Notes: generated by a model not told the origin, from the sequence alone. A DNA stretch of 64,000 nucleotides from Escherichia phage RB32 (NC_008515.1); one strand, 5' to 3'; shown: positions 53,976 to 61,172, numbered from the stretch's first letter. Translations and numbers: made by a program.

Positions 53976-54940
53976 TGTATTCTTTAGAGGAATTTAATAA
54001 TCAAGCAATAAACGCAGATTTCCAACGTAATAATATGTTTAGCTGCGTTTTTGCAACAACTCCATCAACTAAAAGCTCTTCGTTGATAAGTTCAATTAGC
54101 AACTTTTCTTATAATAACTTGGGCCTAAATTCAGATTGGTTAGGATTAACCCAAGGTGATATTAATCAGGGAATTACCACGCTAATTACAGCTGGCACAC
54201 AAAAACTGATAAGAAAATCAGGGGTTAGTAAATATCTTATTGGTGCCATGAGTCAACGTACAGTTCAAAGTTTATTAGGCTCATTTACAGTTGGTACATA
54301 TTTAATTGACTTCTTTAACATGGCATATAACTCATCTGGATTGATGATATATTCCGTAAAAATGCCAGAGAATAGATTATCCTATGAAACTGACTGGAAC
54401 TATAATTCTCCTAATATTCGTATAACTGGGAGAGAATTAGACCCTTTGGTTATTTCATTTAGAATGGATTCAGAAGCTTGTAACTATCGTGCAATGCAAG
54501 ACTGGGTTAACTCTGTTCAAGACCCAGTAACTGGATTACGTGCTTTGCCACAAGATGTCGAGGCAGATATTCAGGTTAATCTTCATTCTCGTAATGGATT
54601 GCCTCATACTGCGGTGATGTTCACCGGATGCATTCCAGTGTCAGTGAGCGCTCCTGAGTTATCATATGATGGAGATAACCAAATAACTACATTTGATGTT
54701 ACTTTTGCGTATAGAGTCATGCAGGCTGGAGCAGTTGATAGACAAGCTGCGCTTGAATGGCTTGAATCTGCTGCTATAAATGGTATTCAAAGCGTTCTCG
54801 GAAATAGTGGAGGTGTTACTGGACTATCTAATTCGCTTTCACGACTCAGTAGATTAGGGGGAACTGCAGGAAGCATTTCAAACATTAATACTATGACAGG
54901 AATTGTCAATTCGCAAAGTAAAATATTAGGAGCAATATAA
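53975..54940 (+). CDS. 54: gp54 baseplate tail-tube initiator
   Basis: 321 aa. Confidence 0.9.
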   Translation: MYSLEEFNNQAINADFQRNNMFSCVFATTPSTKSSSLISSISNFSYNNLGLNSDWLGLTQGDINQGITTLITAGTQKLIRKSGVSKYLIGAMSQRTVQSLLGSFTVGTYLIDFFNMAYNSSGLMIYSVKMPENRLSYETDWNYNSPNIRITGRELDPLVISFRMDSEACNYRAMQDWVNSVQDPVTGLRALPQDVEADIQVNLHSRNGLPHTAVMFTGCIPVSVSAPELSYDGDNQITTFDVTFAYRVMQAGAVDRQAALEWLESAAINGIQSVLGNSGGVTGLSNSLSRLSRLGGTAGSISNINTMTGIVNSQSKILGAI

Positions 54941-54943
54941 CAA

Positions 54944-54970
54944 TGGGGACCTTTCGGTCCCCATATTTTT
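54944..54970 (+). terminator. Intrinsic terminator after gene 54
   Basis: GGGGACCTTTCGGTCCCC hairpin + ATATTTTTATTT. Confidence 0.65.
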
Positions 54971-55259
54971 ATTTACGGAATGAAATGAAAGCAGCAACTG
55001 AAGCAACTAAACTGTCTTCAATATAAACTTCAATTTTTACCGGAGCTTCTGACTCGAATTTACCTGTTACTACACCCTGAAAAATACTTTCAGTCTGTTC
55101 TGGCTTTGAAAAATTTTCAGAAGGAAAAATTCCGAACTTTTTATCTGTTCCAAAAATTTTAATAAATTCATCGTAAACTGCTTCATTAAAAGCATTATCA
55201 GCAGGAATAACGCCTTCAACTACAAGTTCTTGACCTAAAAAGCGTAAAGAAGATTTCAT
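54969..55259 (-). CDS. Hypothetical protein, 96 aa (last gene of the alt transcription unit)
   Basis: ORF track; position between gene 54 and the Alt paralogs. Confidence 0.6.
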   Translation of the reverse strand: MKSSLRFLGQELVVEGVIPADNAFNEAVYDEFIKIFGTDKKFGIFPSENFSKPEQTESIFQGVVTGKFESEAPVKIEVYIEDSLVASVAAFISFRK

Positions 55260-55319
55260 TTTGTGTTCCTCATGTTATGTCAGTAAGACTACTATAACAC
55301 AACACGAGGGACTTGTAAA

Positions 55320-57377
55320 CTACATTTTGAACTTTTTAGACATTCCGTTGATGTTAACCAAAGAAGCTAAGATTTGAGAAACTTCATTTTCCTCTTCTTT
55401 TGATTCTTCTACAAGGAATTGATTAAATCCAGTCATTGGACGAACTTCACCAGTTTCCATTAGATGGTCGCCATCATATACTGATTCCTCTAATTGTTCA
55501 GAAGGAGGAACGATTGTACCTTCGATTAGATACTTGTTATAAGCAGTTTCTTTCATAAAGTACGTACTTACTTTATTAATCTTCAGTAAAATTCCACGCG
55601 GTAGAATAACTTCAGCTTCTGATGGAAATCCTGATAAATGACCTGGAACGATAACTTTGATTCGCTCAGCTCCTTTAATTACCATACCCACGCTAGTTTC
55701 AGCATCTTCATTGGCATATGTAGAATGACTACCCGTATGCATTAAATCTTCTGCATCAACGGAACCTTCTCCTTCACCAGAAAATACTGCGCCGGAATCA
55801 TCTAGAGCCATATAGTTTTTACCATGCTCACCGAAGATATTTGGTTTAAGCGATGTGGATACGAAGTTCTTGAAATAGAACATTTTATTTTCAATGTTAT
55901 GACGCAAAGTTTTAAAGGTAACTTCTTGTCCACGATAAAGCGTAGTTCCTGGAGGAAGAACCGAACCTTTAGCGAATGCAGAATCCAACGTCTCGATGTG
56001 CTTAATGGCACGTTCCATATATTCTTCACGGGTAGAATCTGGTTTACCCAAAAGGAACGAGTTCATTTCAACATATGAATCTGCACAATAATCTTCAATT
56101 ACATCAGATTCAGCTTGAGTTAATCCTTTTGGAGTTACTTCGGTGCTTGCGTATTCATATGCCTGAGCGGCAGATTCATTAATCAATTTATAAATGCCAT
56201 TCATTACAAATTGAATAATAGCTGTCTTTTCATCTGGCGTAGCTTTAGAACCTTTAACCAAATCATTGATAATTTTCTTAATAACATCAAAGCTATTAGA
56301 AATATTAATATCAGCAAGATCGCTTAAAATTTTATCAGTTTTATAATCAAAGAATTCTTTATTCTTTAAATATTCTTGAGAACCTTGATATGTTATATCG
56401 CTCTGCAACTTGATGGATGGATCACGTAAACGTGCATGGGCTAATGCAATATGATTTCGGAAGTTTTCTAGTTCATAATCGCTAGATTTAAAACGAGAAG
56501 CACTCCTCATACCACCGATAGCTCCTTTGCTGAAGTTTGAACCAATCTGAATAACGCCAGAGTTCATTGGTCCTTCTGCTTTATATACCGGAACTTTAGA
56601 TTCAAACTCTTGATATTTCTTAGCAGCGAAGCTATCACCCTGAAGTGAAGCATCAACAGTAGAATATTGAGCTTGTGCTGCTAATCGACGACTAATTTTA
56701 GTTTTCTGAATAACAGCTTGGTCCGTGCGCTTATCATTTTCTAAAGCAATAGAAGCAGCAACAGCGACAGCTTTAGGAACAGCATTACCTGTTTTAACGT
56801 CTACATAAACATCACCAACCTTTGATTCAACTTTTGTGAATAACTCAGTTGAAATAGGAGGTACACCTGGAATGTCTTCTAAATTGGCATTTTTACGGTA
56901 AACCATAATATATGCATACTTTTTATCATAGTCCCAGATTTCCTTTAAAAGAACATATCGACCTGCTCCTTTAGTACGTACTAAACGGTCAGCAATAACT
57001 TGCATTTGACGAGCAGCGCCATTTGTTTTACTTTTTAGTACGCGGAATAGGCATGCGTCAATTTTATACTGCTTCATTGTTTGAAGAGCAGTATCAAAAA
57101 CAGCATTAATGACACCAATTGGATTTCCACCCAAGTTTCTAAGCTTAACCAGCGATAATTTCTCGTTGACACCTATCATTACGATATGCATCATTTTATC
57201 GCCTGGCTTAACGTTTTTATTCGTATCACCACCAGAGGTGTATGTACAAAATCTAAATCCAGGAAGCACGCTTTCTTCGCCGGCTTGAATAGCAAAAATT
57301 TGTGGTATTTTATGCTTAGGATTTAAGTTAACAACCGGCGCCGAAGCGCCGTCAAATAATTCTGTAATAAGTTCCAT
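55320..57377 (-). CDS. Alt-family ADP-ribosyltransferase paralog, 685 aa
   Basis: N-terminal about 230 aa closely parallels the adjacent alt product (MELITELFD..., KIDAC, GRYVLLKE.WDYDKKYAYI); C-terminal ART motifs YRGQ...STS...EAEVILPRG. Confidence 0.8.
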   Translation of the reverse strand: MELITELFDGASAPVVNLNPKHKIPQIFAIQAGEESVLPGFRFCTYTSGGDTNKNVKPGDKMMHIVMIGVNEKLSLVKLRNLGGNPIGVINAVFDTALQTMKQYKIDACLFRVLKSKTNGAARQMQVIADRLVRTKGAGRYVLLKEIWDYDKKYAYIMVYRKNANLEDIPGVPPISTELFTKVESKVGDVYVDVKTGNAVPKAVAVAASIALENDKRTDQAVIQKTKISRRLAAQAQYSTVDASLQGDSFAAKKYQEFESKVPVYKAEGPMNSGVIQIGSNFSKGAIGGMRSASRFKSSDYELENFRNHIALAHARLRDPSIKLQSDITYQGSQEYLKNKEFFDYKTDKILSDLADINISNSFDVIKKIINDLVKGSKATPDEKTAIIQFVMNGIYKLINESAAQAYEYASTEVTPKGLTQAESDVIEDYCADSYVEMNSFLLGKPDSTREEYMERAIKHIETLDSAFAKGSVLPPGTTLYRGQEVTFKTLRHNIENKMFYFKNFVSTSLKPNIFGEHGKNYMALDDSGAVFSGEGEGSVDAEDLMHTGSHSTYANEDAETSVGMVIKGAERIKVIVPGHLSGFPSEAEVILPRGILLKINKVSTYFMKETAYNKYLIEGTIVPPSEQLEESVYDGDHLMETGEVRPMTGFNQFLVEESKEEENEVSQILASLVNINGMSKKFKM

Positions 57378-57380
57378 GAT

Positions 57381-59474
57381 TTATCCTTGAACGAACTTGT
57401 AAGGCATGTTTGTAATATCTATGCAAGACGCAATAATTCCAAGAGATGATTCTACTTTCTGTTTAACATTTGATGAAACAAATGATGCAAAGTCAACTCT
57501 GTCTTCTACTTCAATATCACCTGTCATTGCAACTACTTCGCCGGTTTCCATTAGACAGTCTCCGTCATAAATTACCGATTCGGTGAGTTCTTCTGTGGTC
57601 ATAACTTCAGCTTGAATGAGTTTTGTATTATTAGATGTTGTTCCGTCATTATTAGAAGCATCAGTTATTTTATTAACTTTGACCATCAACCCGCGCGGTA
57701 GAATAACTTCAGCTTCTGTTGCTATTCCGAGACTTCCTGGATATACAACATTAACTTTATGAGCTCCATCAATTGCCCATCCTATTTGAACTTTAACGTA
57801 TTCAGGATTTTCTTTATACGCTCTTATTTCGTTTGGATTAATAGTTATTCCTTCTTCATTTTTATCAACTGTTAATTCGTTACGAGCTTCTGGTTCTAAA
57901 AGACCAATACCAGCATGTGTAATTCCAAAACGTCCAAAAATGATAGGAGTTAAAGAAGTAGATACAAAATTTCTGAAATAGAACACTTTATTTTTAACTA
58001 GTGCTTCGTATATAGGAGCAGTCATACTTTGAGCACGATAAACTGTAATGCCTTCCGGTATGCGGTCACCATTTTCAAAAGCTGAATCTAAATTATTTAT
58101 AGCAGATTCAATTTCTTTTTCACTCATTACATCATATCGTTCTGGATTGTAACGACCTAAAAGAAGATTATTAATGTCTGTATATCCTGAACCACAATAC
58201 TCTCTAATACCGCGCTTTTGTGATGGAGTATATTTAGAACCATCACGGGCAATAGTAATATCAATCATTGGACCAGCACCAATTCCAGAAAAGCTATAAA
58301 TCATTCGTTTGAGGAATTTAGTTTTTGCTGCATTCCAGGCATTTTTAGTTATTTCTCCCCAGACTTCATCTGGTTGCCCTTTACGAGTTTTATTATGTTT
58401 ATCAAGCCAATTATCTTTATATTCTTCAAAGAATTTATTAACAGCTGCTGCGTATTTCTCTAAACATTTTATTGAAGTAGTTGGCTCATTTTTTATCGCG
58501 TTAAAAATTACATCTTTAATTTTTTCGGAAACTTCATCAACCTCACTTTTTGAAAAGAATTTATAGTCATAGTGAAGTTCATTCGCAGTTCCTTCGGCAA
58601 TAATTTTTGCTGCCTTAGTTTTAGAAGCTAATGAATTAATTCCAAGCTTCATTTCTTCTGCTTCGGGAATTAAAGGAGCGGTAGCAGGTTTATTGAAATT
58701 AGCTGCGGTAGATTCATACTTCTGGAATAATTCACTTTCAAACCTAGAAGATTCCAATGATTGACTTTGCGCAATTGCTCTACGGGAAATTTTAACTTTA
58801 ACGATTACAGCTTGGTCAGAACGTTTATCATTTTCTTGCGCAATAGATGCTGCAATTGCCTCATTTTTAGTTACTTGGGCTCCAGTATCTTTATTGATAT
58901 AAACATCACCGACCTTCGATTCAACTTTAGTAAAGAGCTCGGTACTAATTTCCGGAACTCCTGGAATGTCTTCTAGTGATACATTTTTGCGATGTATAAG
59001 AATATATGCATACTTTTTATCATAATCCCAGAGTTCCTTAAGAAGGACGTATCTACCACCTGAACGACTACGGATAAGTCTATCAGCAATAACTTGAATT
59101 TGTCGAGCTTGGCCAGCAGTTTTAGACTTAAGAATACGAAGCATACAAGCATCAATTTTATACTGACGCATCGTTTGCATTGCAACAGTAAAAACTGAAT
59201 TGATATAATTAATTGGGCTTGGACCAAGACCTTTTAATTTAGCAATTGAACCTTTAGCAGTTAATGTAAAAGGAACAATATGCATCATTTTATCGCCCAT
59301 TTTTAAATCGCGATTAGTATCACCTCCAGATGTATAGGTACATAAACGAAAGCCTGGTTGTTCAATTGCATCATCAACATGAACTGAAAAAATTTGCGGT
59401 ATTTTCTTCTTTGGATTTAAGTTTGTAATCGGAAGAGTAGTATCTTCGTCAAATAATTCTGTAATGAGTTCCAT
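57381..59474 (-). CDS. alt: Alt ADP-ribosyltransferase (injected head protein)
   Basis: Near-identical to T4 Alt as recalled (MELITELFDEDTTLPITNL...); R-S-E ART motifs; start taken at second Met. Confidence 0.85.
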   Translation of the reverse strand: MELITELFDEDTTLPITNLNPKKKIPQIFSVHVDDAIEQPGFRLCTYTSGGDTNRDLKMGDKMMHIVPFTLTAKGSIAKLKGLGPSPINYINSVFTVAMQTMRQYKIDACMLRILKSKTAGQARQIQVIADRLIRSRSGGRYVLLKELWDYDKKYAYILIHRKNVSLEDIPGVPEISTELFTKVESKVGDVYINKDTGAQVTKNEAIAASIAQENDKRSDQAVIVKVKISRRAIAQSQSLESSRFESELFQKYESTAANFNKPATAPLIPEAEEMKLGINSLASKTKAAKIIAEGTANELHYDYKFFSKSEVDEVSEKIKDVIFNAIKNEPTTSIKCLEKYAAAVNKFFEEYKDNWLDKHNKTRKGQPDEVWGEITKNAWNAAKTKFLKRMIYSFSGIGAGPMIDITIARDGSKYTPSQKRGIREYCGSGYTDINNLLLGRYNPERYDVMSEKEIESAINNLDSAFENGDRIPEGITVYRAQSMTAPIYEALVKNKVFYFRNFVSTSLTPIIFGRFGITHAGIGLLEPEARNELTVDKNEEGITINPNEIRAYKENPEYVKVQIGWAIDGAHKVNVVYPGSLGIATEAEVILPRGLMVKVNKITDASNNDGTTSNNTKLIQAEVMTTEELTESVIYDGDCLMETGEVVAMTGDIEVEDRVDFASFVSSNVKQKVESSLGIIASCIDITNMPYKFVQG

Positions 59475-59526
59475 CATATCCTCTCTAGTGTTTATTCTAT
59501 TTATAAAATTAAAGGCCCGAAGGCCT

Positions 59527-59715
59527 TTAATAATCTATTGGTAAGAGAGTACGATATATTTCAAACTTTGGACCTTTTTCATAGGCATCAAATGTTTCTG
59601 TGAATTTATTATAAGCATATGCATCTATAAATTCAATCATGATTTGTGATACAGAAGTAGAAACATCTCCACCTTCTTTTTGAGCCACGACAATTGTTTC
59701 TAAGTAAGCTTTCAT
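59527..59715 (-). CDS. Small hypothetical protein, 62 aa
   Basis: ORF track; overlaps the gene 30 stop by 4 nt. Confidence 0.5.
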   Translation of the reverse strand: MKAYLETIVVAQKEGGDVSTSVSQIMIEFIDAYAYNKFTETFDAYEKGPKFEIYRTLLPIDY

Positions 59716-61172
59716 AGACCAGTTACCTCATGAAAATCACCAAATACATCTTCGAATGTATTAGCTTTAGTTTTATCTTCACGTAAACGAATCGCAATCG
59801 GAAGAAATAATTTAACGTAATCAGTGCGGCCATCAGATTTTAACCAACCGTTGCATTCGCACTCTAGAATTTTTCCAATATAATAATTTTGGTTTTCCAT
59901 GATGCGAGTACGGTCAAGTTCATGTGATTTTACACCGGCTTTATCTTTTAAGCCTGAACCAGCATTTACTTTAATTTTTCCACACTCTGATTCAAGAATA
60001 AATCCACCTGCTTTAGTAGGGTCTTTACGGTGAGGATAAATTCCTACAATTTTTAAATCAACATCAATTACTTCTTTAAATTTATAGAGATTTTTTGAAC
60101 GAGCATTTTCCCACAATCCATCGGTATTTTTGAGAATAATACCTTCAAGACCTTGGTCAATATACTTTTTGTAAATAACCTTAGCTTCATCTAGGTTATT
60201 TACTACCTGGTTTTCAATTAAAATTACTTTATCATAGCCTGATGTCATTTGTTCTAGTTTAGAAAAACGTACATCATATTTTAAACGAAATGCTGGAAGA
60301 CCGTATACTTCTACCAACGGTACATAATCCCAGACCTGAAACTTCATGCATTGAGCTTCTTTTTCTGAAATAGTTCCTTTTAAAGATTTATTAGCGATTC
60401 CATTAGAAGCAGTACGTGATTCAGCTACTTCTGTGAAGTCTTTAGCTTTGCTAATTTCAGGAGTGTCAAAAAGAAAATCTAGGCCTTCTGATTCCTTTTT
60501 AACTTGCTCATGGTATACCAATTCGCCATCAATTAACACACCTTCTGGATGAATCTGGCGGGCTTCAGCAGTCATTTTGATTAACTCTTCCTTAAGAAGA
60601 TCTAATCCTAGGTATTCATTACCAGCTCGTGATAAAAGACGAACATCATCTAATTCATCACCTCTGACTTCAGCAAAGCACCGAGCTCCATCAGCTTTTA
60701 ATTGGGCAAAGGCTGGAAATTTGATATTCTTATTAATGCCTTTTTCATCATAAGAACTTGCCAGCATTTGAGGTTGTTCAGGAATTAAACCTGGCCAAAC
60801 TTTGTTTGCAATAGATACTGATGCACCGCATTCAAGGTCTCGCATCATCACCCGACGCAAAACTTCAACATCATCTTTTTTACCGTCAGTAATATATCCA
60901 GTTAATTCCTCAATTGCCGCATTTCCAGTCAATTTCCGAGTAGCTAACGTGAATTCAATGAAGTCAAGCATATCGGTAAGAGTCAACATTCCAAAACTCT
61001 GGGTAGCAATACCAGGTTTAGGCCATTTCTTGATATAATACTGTAACCCACGAGAATAAGTCAGACGATATACTCGTTTAAGCAATTCATTATCTTTATT
61101 CTTTTCAAGAATTGCTTGCTTCTGCTTAGTTGAACCAATAGATGCTATTTCGTTCAGAATTTTAAGAATCAT
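59712..61172 (-). CDS. 30: ATP-dependent DNA ligase
   Basis: N-terminus MILKILNEIASIGSTKQKQAILEKNK as in T4 ligase; KxDG adenylation motif FAQLKADGARCF. Confidence 0.95.
   Translation of the reverse strand: MILKILNEIASIGSTKQKQAILEKNKDNELLKRVYRLTYSRGLQYYIKKWPKPGIATQSFGMLTLTDMLDFIEFTLATRKLTGNAAIEELTGYITDGKKDDVEVLRRVMMRDLECGASVSIANKVWPGLIPEQPQMLASSYDEKGINKNIKFPAFAQLKADGARCFAEVRGDELDDVRLLSRAGNEYLGLDLLKEELIKMTAEARQIHPEGVLIDGELVYHEQVKKESEGLDFLFDTPEISKAKDFTEVAESRTASNGIANKSLKGTISEKEAQCMKFQVWDYVPLVEVYGLPAFRLKYDVRFSKLEQMTSGYDKVILIENQVVNNLDEAKVIYKKYIDQGLEGIILKNTDGLWENARSKNLYKFKEVIDVDLKIVGIYPHRKDPTKAGGFILESECGKIKVNAGSGLKDKAGVKSHELDRTRIMENQNYYIGKILECECNGWLKSDGRTDYVKLFLPIAIRLREDKTKANTFEDVFGDFHEVTGL

Follow-up and report, generated by a model that had tools for sequence, protein, structure and literature searches.

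A second, divergent Alt-family ADP-ribosyltransferase gene beside alt at the alt locus of phage RB33

Two Alt-family genes at the alt locus

The DNA described here is a stretch of 64,000 nucleotides (the window) presented as Escherichia phage RB32 (NC_008515.1), and the elements in question are two tandem genes for Alt-family ADP-ribosyltransferases (ARTs), which encode proteins of 697 and 685 amino acids (aa). Over the 4.9 kb spanning the pair, the sequence agrees at 100% identity with Enterobacteria phage RB33 (KM607001) and at 97.6 to 97.9% with T2, T6, RB27, and numerous further Tequatrovirus genomes; this stretch is the RB33 alt locus, with two Alt-family paralogs. The first gene, alt, yields the 697-aa product, or one of 698 aa if an extra ATG at 59477 is used, and the second gene follows after a gap of 3 nt (Table 1). 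An earlier note, made from the sequence alone, had read the pair as tandem Alt-family ART genes with conserved ends and a divergent middle. Its coordinates and lengths for the two open reading frames (ORFs) proved exact, and the comparison of the two proteins bears out the arrangement.

Aligned by BLASTP, the paralogs share 41% identity over their full length (E = 2e-162), a similarity that therefore cannot be attributed to chance. Both proteins start with MELITELFD, and identity across residues 1 to 240 is approximately 67% (56 to 75% per 40-codon window). It falls to 17 to 26% in codons 241 to 440, the central helical region, and lies at 24 to 46% in the ART domain (codons 441 to 640) and at 29 to 53% in the C-terminal tail. 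The Pfam domain PF03496 (ADPrib_exo_Tox) is present in both proteins (E = 5.6e-20 and 2.2e-37), and LYRGQ/VYRAQ, FVSTSL, and an identical EAEVILPRG are found in both, as the earlier note had observed for the C-terminal ART motifs. The R, S-T-S, and E-x-E catalytic residues are kept in each paralog, and R482, S507, S509, E587, and E589 (numbered as in the 685-aa protein) are invariant in an alignment of 20 family members. A 685-codon frame lacking the catalytic residues had been named beforehand as evidence that would speak against an active second enzyme; the alignment shows all of them in place.

Synonymous divergence (dS) between the RB33 paralogs is saturated, at 1.2 to 1.5, in all segments, including the N-terminal one (1.5). 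The duplication is therefore old and has seen no recent gene conversion, which we rejected on this ground as the source of the similar N termini. Instead, the N-terminal similarity of the paralogs indicates constraint.

The 685-aa protein follows the plan of the T4 Alt family along its whole length. Three pieces of it match phrog_802 in collinear order at positions 2 to 241, 248 to 410, and 412 to 674, and even the divergent middle retains homology to this family (phrog_802 248 to 410, E = 2.5e-21), while the 697-aa Alt gives a full-length match to the same family, named 'Alt-like RNA polymerase ADP-ribosyltransferase'. In common with T4 Alt, it has an R-S-E ART domain (PF03496) with the catalytic residues, an Alt-specific N-terminal domain (N-domain) of approximately 240 aa within a collinear full-length architecture, a gene position between DNA ligase/alt.1 and alt.-3/gene 54, and, at the level of motifs, prohead-protease sites at both termini. 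Relatives of the 685-aa protein carry the precomputed domain PF26846 together with PF03496. In an NCBIfam search, neither protein matched any family.

An AlphaFold (AF2) model of the full-length 685-aa protein, with a mean predicted local distance difference test (pLDDT) score of 74.9, reveals three regions: an N-terminal alpha/beta region (residues ~12 to 215), a helical middle (~240 to 470), and the ART region (~470 to 625). The central region is modeled as helical with pLDDT values of 80 to 92, and residues 629 to 685 fall below 50. Compared with the PDB by Foldseek, the ART domain of the model matched Vis, C3, CDTa, VIP2, iota Ia, and C2-I (E = 2e-6 to 1e-3). A sequence search of solved structures with the 685-aa protein gave no match at E ≤ 0.01, and a family profile reached only C3-like and binary-toxin ARTs among them and no Alt structure.

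In the ADP-ribosylating turn-turn (ARTT) loop of the 685-aa protein, the first catalytic Glu is preceded at a distance of three residues by the aromatic F584. The same position is occupied by Ile in RB33 Alt and by Pro in T4 Alt, and Y or F is found there in the majority of the remaining second or third paralogs. The equivalent aromatic residue of C3-like and iota-like toxins contacts the substrate. Together with the dissimilar central region, the F584 difference in the ARTT loop is a candidate for the cause of a difference in specificity between the paralogs.

The earlier note had assigned the N-terminal third to packaging and processing, and this holds in part. The first six residues correspond to a propeptide, as published for T4 Alt (PMC5694885), whereas residues ~12 to 215 belong to a globular alpha/beta domain of the Alt family. 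A phmmer search of 1.84 billion representatives with the Alt N-domain gave 69 clusters at 50% identity, almost all of 600 to 712 aa; among the clusters checked, 7 of 10 had a C-terminal ART above the Pfam cutoff and 1 more had a sub-threshold partial match. Since nearly all of the 69 clusters are full-length Alt-like proteins, we rejected the N-terminal third as a general packaging module at the sequence level. Three metagenomic proteins, P0183, P0184, and P0185 (485, 541, and 221 aa), contain the first ~140 to 160 N-domain residues with no ART detectable; they may stem from truncated contigs or carry different C-terminal modules.

When the predicted viral structures of BFVD were searched with Foldseek, the Alt family was followed by many phage proteins outside it (probability 1.0, E = 1e-7 to 1e-4, 10 to 15% identity). 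These include proteins named as zeta-toxin, ParB/sulfiredoxin, and cytidine deaminase domain proteins and, likewise by name only, large uncharacterised proteins from phages of Erwinia, Dickeya, Shigella, and Vibrio. As a lead only, and at the level of structure only, the N-domain fold may be a module shared by ejected proteins, perhaps one for delivery or tethering that is joined to other effector domains outside the Alt family. The modeled structure also hints weakly at a GNAT-like fold for the Alt N-domain. The GNAT motif is Q/R-x-x-G-x-G/A before helix alpha3, and a conserved loop before helix 86-104 of the N-domain, GLGxDP (RNLGGNP in the 685-aa protein), has a partial likeness to it. No GNAT Pfam match was obtained for 30 N-domains even at E ≤ 10, and all PHROG matches of the N-domain below E 0.01 were Alt-derived, with nothing else recurring across queries. 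GNAT homology at the sequence level was rejected for this lack of any Pfam or non-Alt PHROG signal.

The 697-aa protein shares 70% identity overall with T4 Alt (NP_049811), whereas the 685-aa protein shares 41%. Residues 1 to 245 and the tail of RB33 Alt are ~92 to 100% identical to T4 Alt, and the middle is 16 to 73% identical. By this comparison, the ortholog of T4 Alt is the 697-aa protein, which is its closest relative and lies adjacent to alt.1, and not the 685-aa protein. The middle of RB33 alt forms an internal cassette, for which no megablast-level similarity to T4 alt was found. In the flanking DNA, alt of the RB33/T2 type and T4 alt agree at 98% through codon 247 and at 90% from codon 589 onward. 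Between RB33 and T4 alt, dS is 1.0 to 1.45 inside the cassette versus 0.08 in the N-terminal block. This jump in dS and the block boundaries argue for replacement of a cassette rather than fast local evolution, and they indicate that alt itself is a mosaic arising by cassette exchange. The T4-type alt cassette occurs in 174 phage records. Sf21 combines a T4-type alt with an intact paralog, and cassette type and paralog state therefore assort at least partly independently.

Table 1. Features of the alt locus, with positions counted from the first nucleotide of the window
Feature	Position	Strand	Remarks
alt, RB33_196, 697 aa	57381..59474	minus	PF03496; annotated alt in KM607001
Internal alt cassette, codons ~248-588	57711..58735	minus	central helical region and most of ART domain
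Second Alt-family ART gene, RB33_195, 685 aa	55320..57377	minus	'hypothetical protein', alt.-2, in KM607001
MELITE propeptide motif (ITE-6), codons 1-6	57360..57377	minus	identical to that of T4 Alt
Alt-specific N-terminal alpha/beta domain, aa 7-238	56664..57359	minus	
Central helical region, aa 239-415	56133..56663	minus	most diverged from Alt
ART catalytic domain, aa 416-625	55503..56132	minus	PF03496 spans 416-620
R482	55932-55934	minus	invariant
S507-T-S509	55851-55859	minus	S507 and S509 invariant
E587-A-E589	55611-55619	minus	both Glu invariant
Acidic C-terminal tail, aa 632-685, after LEE-631	55323..55484	minus	probably disordered (low model confidence)
Stretch absent from T4, ~1.69 kb	55340..57029	minus	bounded by 9-bp direct repeats CTAAAAAGT
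T4-type late promoter box TATAAATA	59498..59505	minus	~20 nt upstream of alt start; context TATAAATAGAATAAACACTAGAGAGGATATGATG
Second exact TATAAATA box, inside alt	58094-58101	minus	~720 nt upstream of second gene
DNA ligase, gene 30	59712-61172	minus	
alt.1, 62 aa	59527-59715	minus	Pfam Phage_blade PF24647, E = 7.5e-29
GC hairpin AAAGGCCTTCGGGCCTTT, terminator-like	59511..59528	minus	overlaps alt.1 stop codon; read from printed sequence
alt.-3, 96 aa, DUF5498	54969..55259	minus	downstream neighbour, not in ART pair
Sigma-70-like promoter of alt.-3	55291-55319	minus	TTTACA-17-TATAGT with TG
Bidirectional terminator	54943-54964		beyond it gene 54 on opposite strand

The paralog in T4 and in related phages

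Whether reference T4 has the same paralog had been left as a question in the earlier note; T4 holds only a deleted remnant. At the corresponding position, T4 has two small ORFs, alt.-1 and alt.-2, for which the T4 record itself notes an origin by ancient duplication of the initial part of alt. Their translation begins MELITELFDGASAPV..., which is the N terminus of the RB33 685-aa protein and not that of Alt. T4 DNA aligns to the window at 57426..57030 (95%) and then at 55339..54924 (97%). The 9-bp sequence CTAAAAAGT is found in two copies in RB33, at both edges of the stretch absent from T4, and in a single copy in T4 (L001, 4105-4113), from which it follows that T4 is the deletion derivative. 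The alignment identifies the 685-aa gene as the intact form of the T4 alt.-1/alt.-2 remnant.

With a 241-nt probe across the T4 junction, the T4-type junction was found to be contiguous in 91 phage records, and the 685-aa protein has counterparts of 90% identity or higher in approximately 400 phage records. Across records, the orthologs of the 685-aa protein are 96.5 to 100% identical, after which there is a gap to <60%; they therefore form a well-separated and conserved group of orthologs. Genomes with both genes are the norm and T4 departs from it, the paralog being present in about four of five sequenced close relatives.

Compared with its T2 ortholog, the 685-aa gene shows 46 synonymous versus 5 non-synonymous differences, and the ratio of non-synonymous to synonymous substitution rates (dN/dS) is 0.028. 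For alt and its T2 ortholog, the value is 0.055, and these ratios point to strong purifying selection on both genes. They also bear on the idea that the second gene is a decaying or catalytically dead duplicate, an idea that the deleted remnant in T4 and 90 other records and the second copy split in two in Moonvirus CF1 might encourage. With 685 codons open in RB33, all catalytic residues present, and so low a dN/dS, a pseudogene or dead enzyme was rejected; this explanation is extremely improbable in general and effectively refuted for RB33.

The paralog is dispensable on laboratory hosts, as alt is, because T4 lost the gene by the 1.69-kb deletion. That T4 does well without it would fit a redundant or dosage copy, which would be packaged and injected and would act on essentially Alt's own targets (RNA polymerase alpha and others), boosting or safeguarding the injected activity. 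The same catalytic motifs, including the identical EAEVILPRG, the same termini, and the same operon are consistent with such a copy. However, the persistence of a redundant copy at 41% identity under a dN/dS of 0.03 in ~400 genomes would be unexpected, its center is only 17 to 26% identical to that of Alt, and the ARTT loop differs, so that we regard redundancy as rather unlikely.

The locus also varies across the Tevenvirinae. Three tandem full-length Alt-like genes are present in Dhakavirus UGJNEcP4 (L004, 361-6624), and Moonvirus CF1 (L005, 1872-6123) has an intact Alt-like gene plus a second that is broken into two ORFs. A single matching place per record was obtained for RB69 and for many Klebsiella and Acinetobacter phages. 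The fragmented alt genes of Shigella phage sb4 look like assembly frameshifts rather than biology and were set aside. As a tentative idea, which is less likely than not to hold, the alt locus may act as a polymorphic-effector array, in which a constant delivery scaffold (the N- and C-terminal propeptides and the GNAT-like N-domain) is combined with exchangeable cassettes of middle plus ART in 1 to 3 tandem copies.

Expression, processing, and the proposed role of the paralog

After alt.1, the order of elements is GC hairpin, TATAAATA, Shine-Dalgarno, and alt. The hairpin AAAGGCCTTCGGGCCTTT sits just upstream of the alt late promoter, between the promoter and alt.1, and was not among the results of a simple terminator scan. 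The late promoter box was matched 24 times in the window versus 9.2 expected. The TATAAATA box upstream of alt likely drives both ART genes, and the box inside alt could give the paralog a late transcript of its own. The AAGGA Shine-Dalgarno of the second gene lies in the 3' end of alt; together with the 3-nt gap, this makes cotranscription and translational coupling likely. On the far side of the pair, the promoter of alt.-3 begins directly after the stop codon of the second ART gene.

T4 Alt, an NAD+:arginine mono-ADP-ribosyltransferase, is present at approximately 40 copies per capsid and is ejected with the DNA. Mass spectrometry has shown that the prohead protease cuts it after ITE-6 and LTE-619, giving a 68.2-kDa mature protein (PMC5694885), and the mass that we computed for T4 Alt residues 7 to 619, 68.2 kDa, equals the published value. 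RB33 Alt keeps both processing motifs (ITE-6 and LTE-632). Likewise, the paralog keeps ITE-6 and LEE-631, the latter aligned with T4 LTE-619 and followed by an invariant Y-D-G-D...E-(T/S)-G-E. Within the N-domain family, L-x-E just ahead of the conserved (V/A/L)F-D is nearly universal, with E6 at least 90% conserved. We infer that the paralog is packaged and processed as well, the main argument being the conserved cleavage motifs and the disordered-looking tail.

Capsid packaging is established for T4 Alt only, and one could suppose that the paralog stays unpackaged and acts late in the producing cell, like ModA and ModB, its termini being conserved for some other purpose. This is a poor prospect, considering that the MELITE and C-terminal L-x-E-S-(V)-Y-D-G-D motifs, which are cleaved in T4 Alt, are conserved and that the whole Alt-specific N-domain is retained.

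Taken together, the paralog is probably, though by no means surely, a second late-expressed, capsid-packaged, and injected arginine ADP-ribosyltransferase with targets different from those of Alt. Both genes would be transcribed late from TATAAATA upstream of alt, with translation of the second gene coupled to that of alt, and both proteins would enter the prohead core. There, the gp21 prohead protease would trim them after ITE-6 and after LTE-632 (Alt) or LEE-631 (paralog), leaving a mature Alt of ~70 kDa and a mature paralog of ~69 kDa, as predicted from motif conservation with T4 Alt. Both would then be ejected with the DNA and would ADP-ribosylate arginines of host proteins using NAD+, the R-S-ExE triad being intact in both. 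In the last and least certain step, the paralog would recognize different host targets, widening host takeover or counter-defence.

A different target set is probable because the central region has diverged and the ARTT loop differs (F584 versus Ile versus Pro). Retargeting of the paralog to another host substrate, as the earlier note had suggested, is plausible in view of the divergent center and ARTT loop, the purifying selection acting on both paralogs, and the retained processing motifs. Several points weigh against a second injected enzyme with targets of its own. The divergence of the center is a difference in sequence and not proof of a different substrate. T4 Alt is promiscuous, so the targets of the two enzymes may overlap. 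Moreover, the second gene is not immediately preceded by a TATAAATA box, the closest one apart from that upstream of alt being inside alt, and the 91 records with the T4-type deletion imply that the gene can be lost without obvious cost.

Retargeting could also take a more specific form, in which the paralog is chiefly a counter-defence effector that would act on toxins or defence proteins of the host instead of the transcription machinery. The analogy behind this proposal is that Alt reportedly modifies MazF. A copy number of 1 to 3 across the Tevenvirinae and exchanged alt cassettes are typical of host-virus conflict genes, and the neighbor alt.-3 is linked to escape from the CmdTAC defence system, in that T4 Alt.-3 mutants with a C-terminal extension escape it (PMC11618068). 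However, the ortholog group of the paralog is almost invariant (96.5 to 100%), which is not what a continuing arms race would leave, and we consider a role chiefly in counter-defence unlikely, if still worth keeping in mind.

Comparison with known systems

The ART pair is already known: it is annotated in RefSeq, it has been discussed in print since 2006, and the same interpretation appeared in 2026. In RefSeq, the two genes bear the name 'Alt-like RNA polymerase ADP-ribosyltransferase' in T2, T6, RB3, and others, and the Sf21 record describes gp189 as 'distinct from T4 Alt... N-terminus similar to T4 Alt.-1'. Duplications of alt, including T4 alt.-1/alt.-2 and 44RR, were listed in 2006 (PMC1524935). 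In 2026, two Alt-like paralogs with 43.29% identity were reported in a close relative, and functional divergence in the form of an expanded target range and stronger suppression of host defence was proposed (PMC13600099). A full-text literature search, with most subscription-journal papers outside its coverage, turned up neither a functional study of the second paralog nor proteomics or a list of its targets. The present point is useful but incremental, as the gene was annotated and its likely divergence suggested in print before.

Compared with T4 Alt, the 697-aa protein has the same position and a near-identical N-terminal 245 residues and tail, but RB33 Alt has a replaced internal cassette. 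The 685-aa protein shares with T4 Alt the three-part architecture, the catalytic triad, both processing motifs, and the operon; it differs in being 41% identical and in having the alt.-1/alt.-2 remnant as its T4 counterpart. Annotated second Alt-like genes of T2 (YP_010073850), T6, RB3 (YP_009098580), Sf21 (gp189), and 6phi13/SHFML-11 encode orthologs of the 685-aa protein (96.5 to 99.6% identity) at the same position, with no substantive difference from the 685-aa gene. Nearly all work on injected phage ADP-ribosyltransferases has T4 as its subject, yet T4 represents the minority, deleted state, and T2 and T6 carry the paralog. If the paralog is indeed packaged and has substrates of its own, T4-based accounts of the first seconds of takeover would be incomplete for most T-even phages, and the T4/T2 comparison offers a ready genetic test of its role.

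Tandem Alt paralogs between ligase/alt.1 and alt.-3/gene 54 are also found in Dhakavirus UGJNEcP4 and in 44RR, where ORF187c is a full-length duplicate. These arrays contain other paralog types, which are ~48% identical to the 685-aa protein, and the copy number in UGJNEcP4 is 3 rather than 2.

Outside the Alt family, T4 ModA and ModB are small proteins without the N-terminal and central regions of Alt. They belong to the same R-S-E ART clade as Alt and are not injected (PMC5512222). The C-terminal domain of the 685-aa protein resembles in fold the C3-like and binary-toxin ARTs, including Vis, C3bot, CDTa, VIP2, iota Ia, and C2-I. Profile matches were also obtained for C3cer and BEC-a, and in the C3cer alignment an aromatic residue precedes the first catalytic Glu by three positions, as in the 685-aa protein. 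However, these toxins are only 14 to 21% identical, have neither the Alt N-domain nor capsid delivery, and are secreted by bacteria toward eukaryotic targets.

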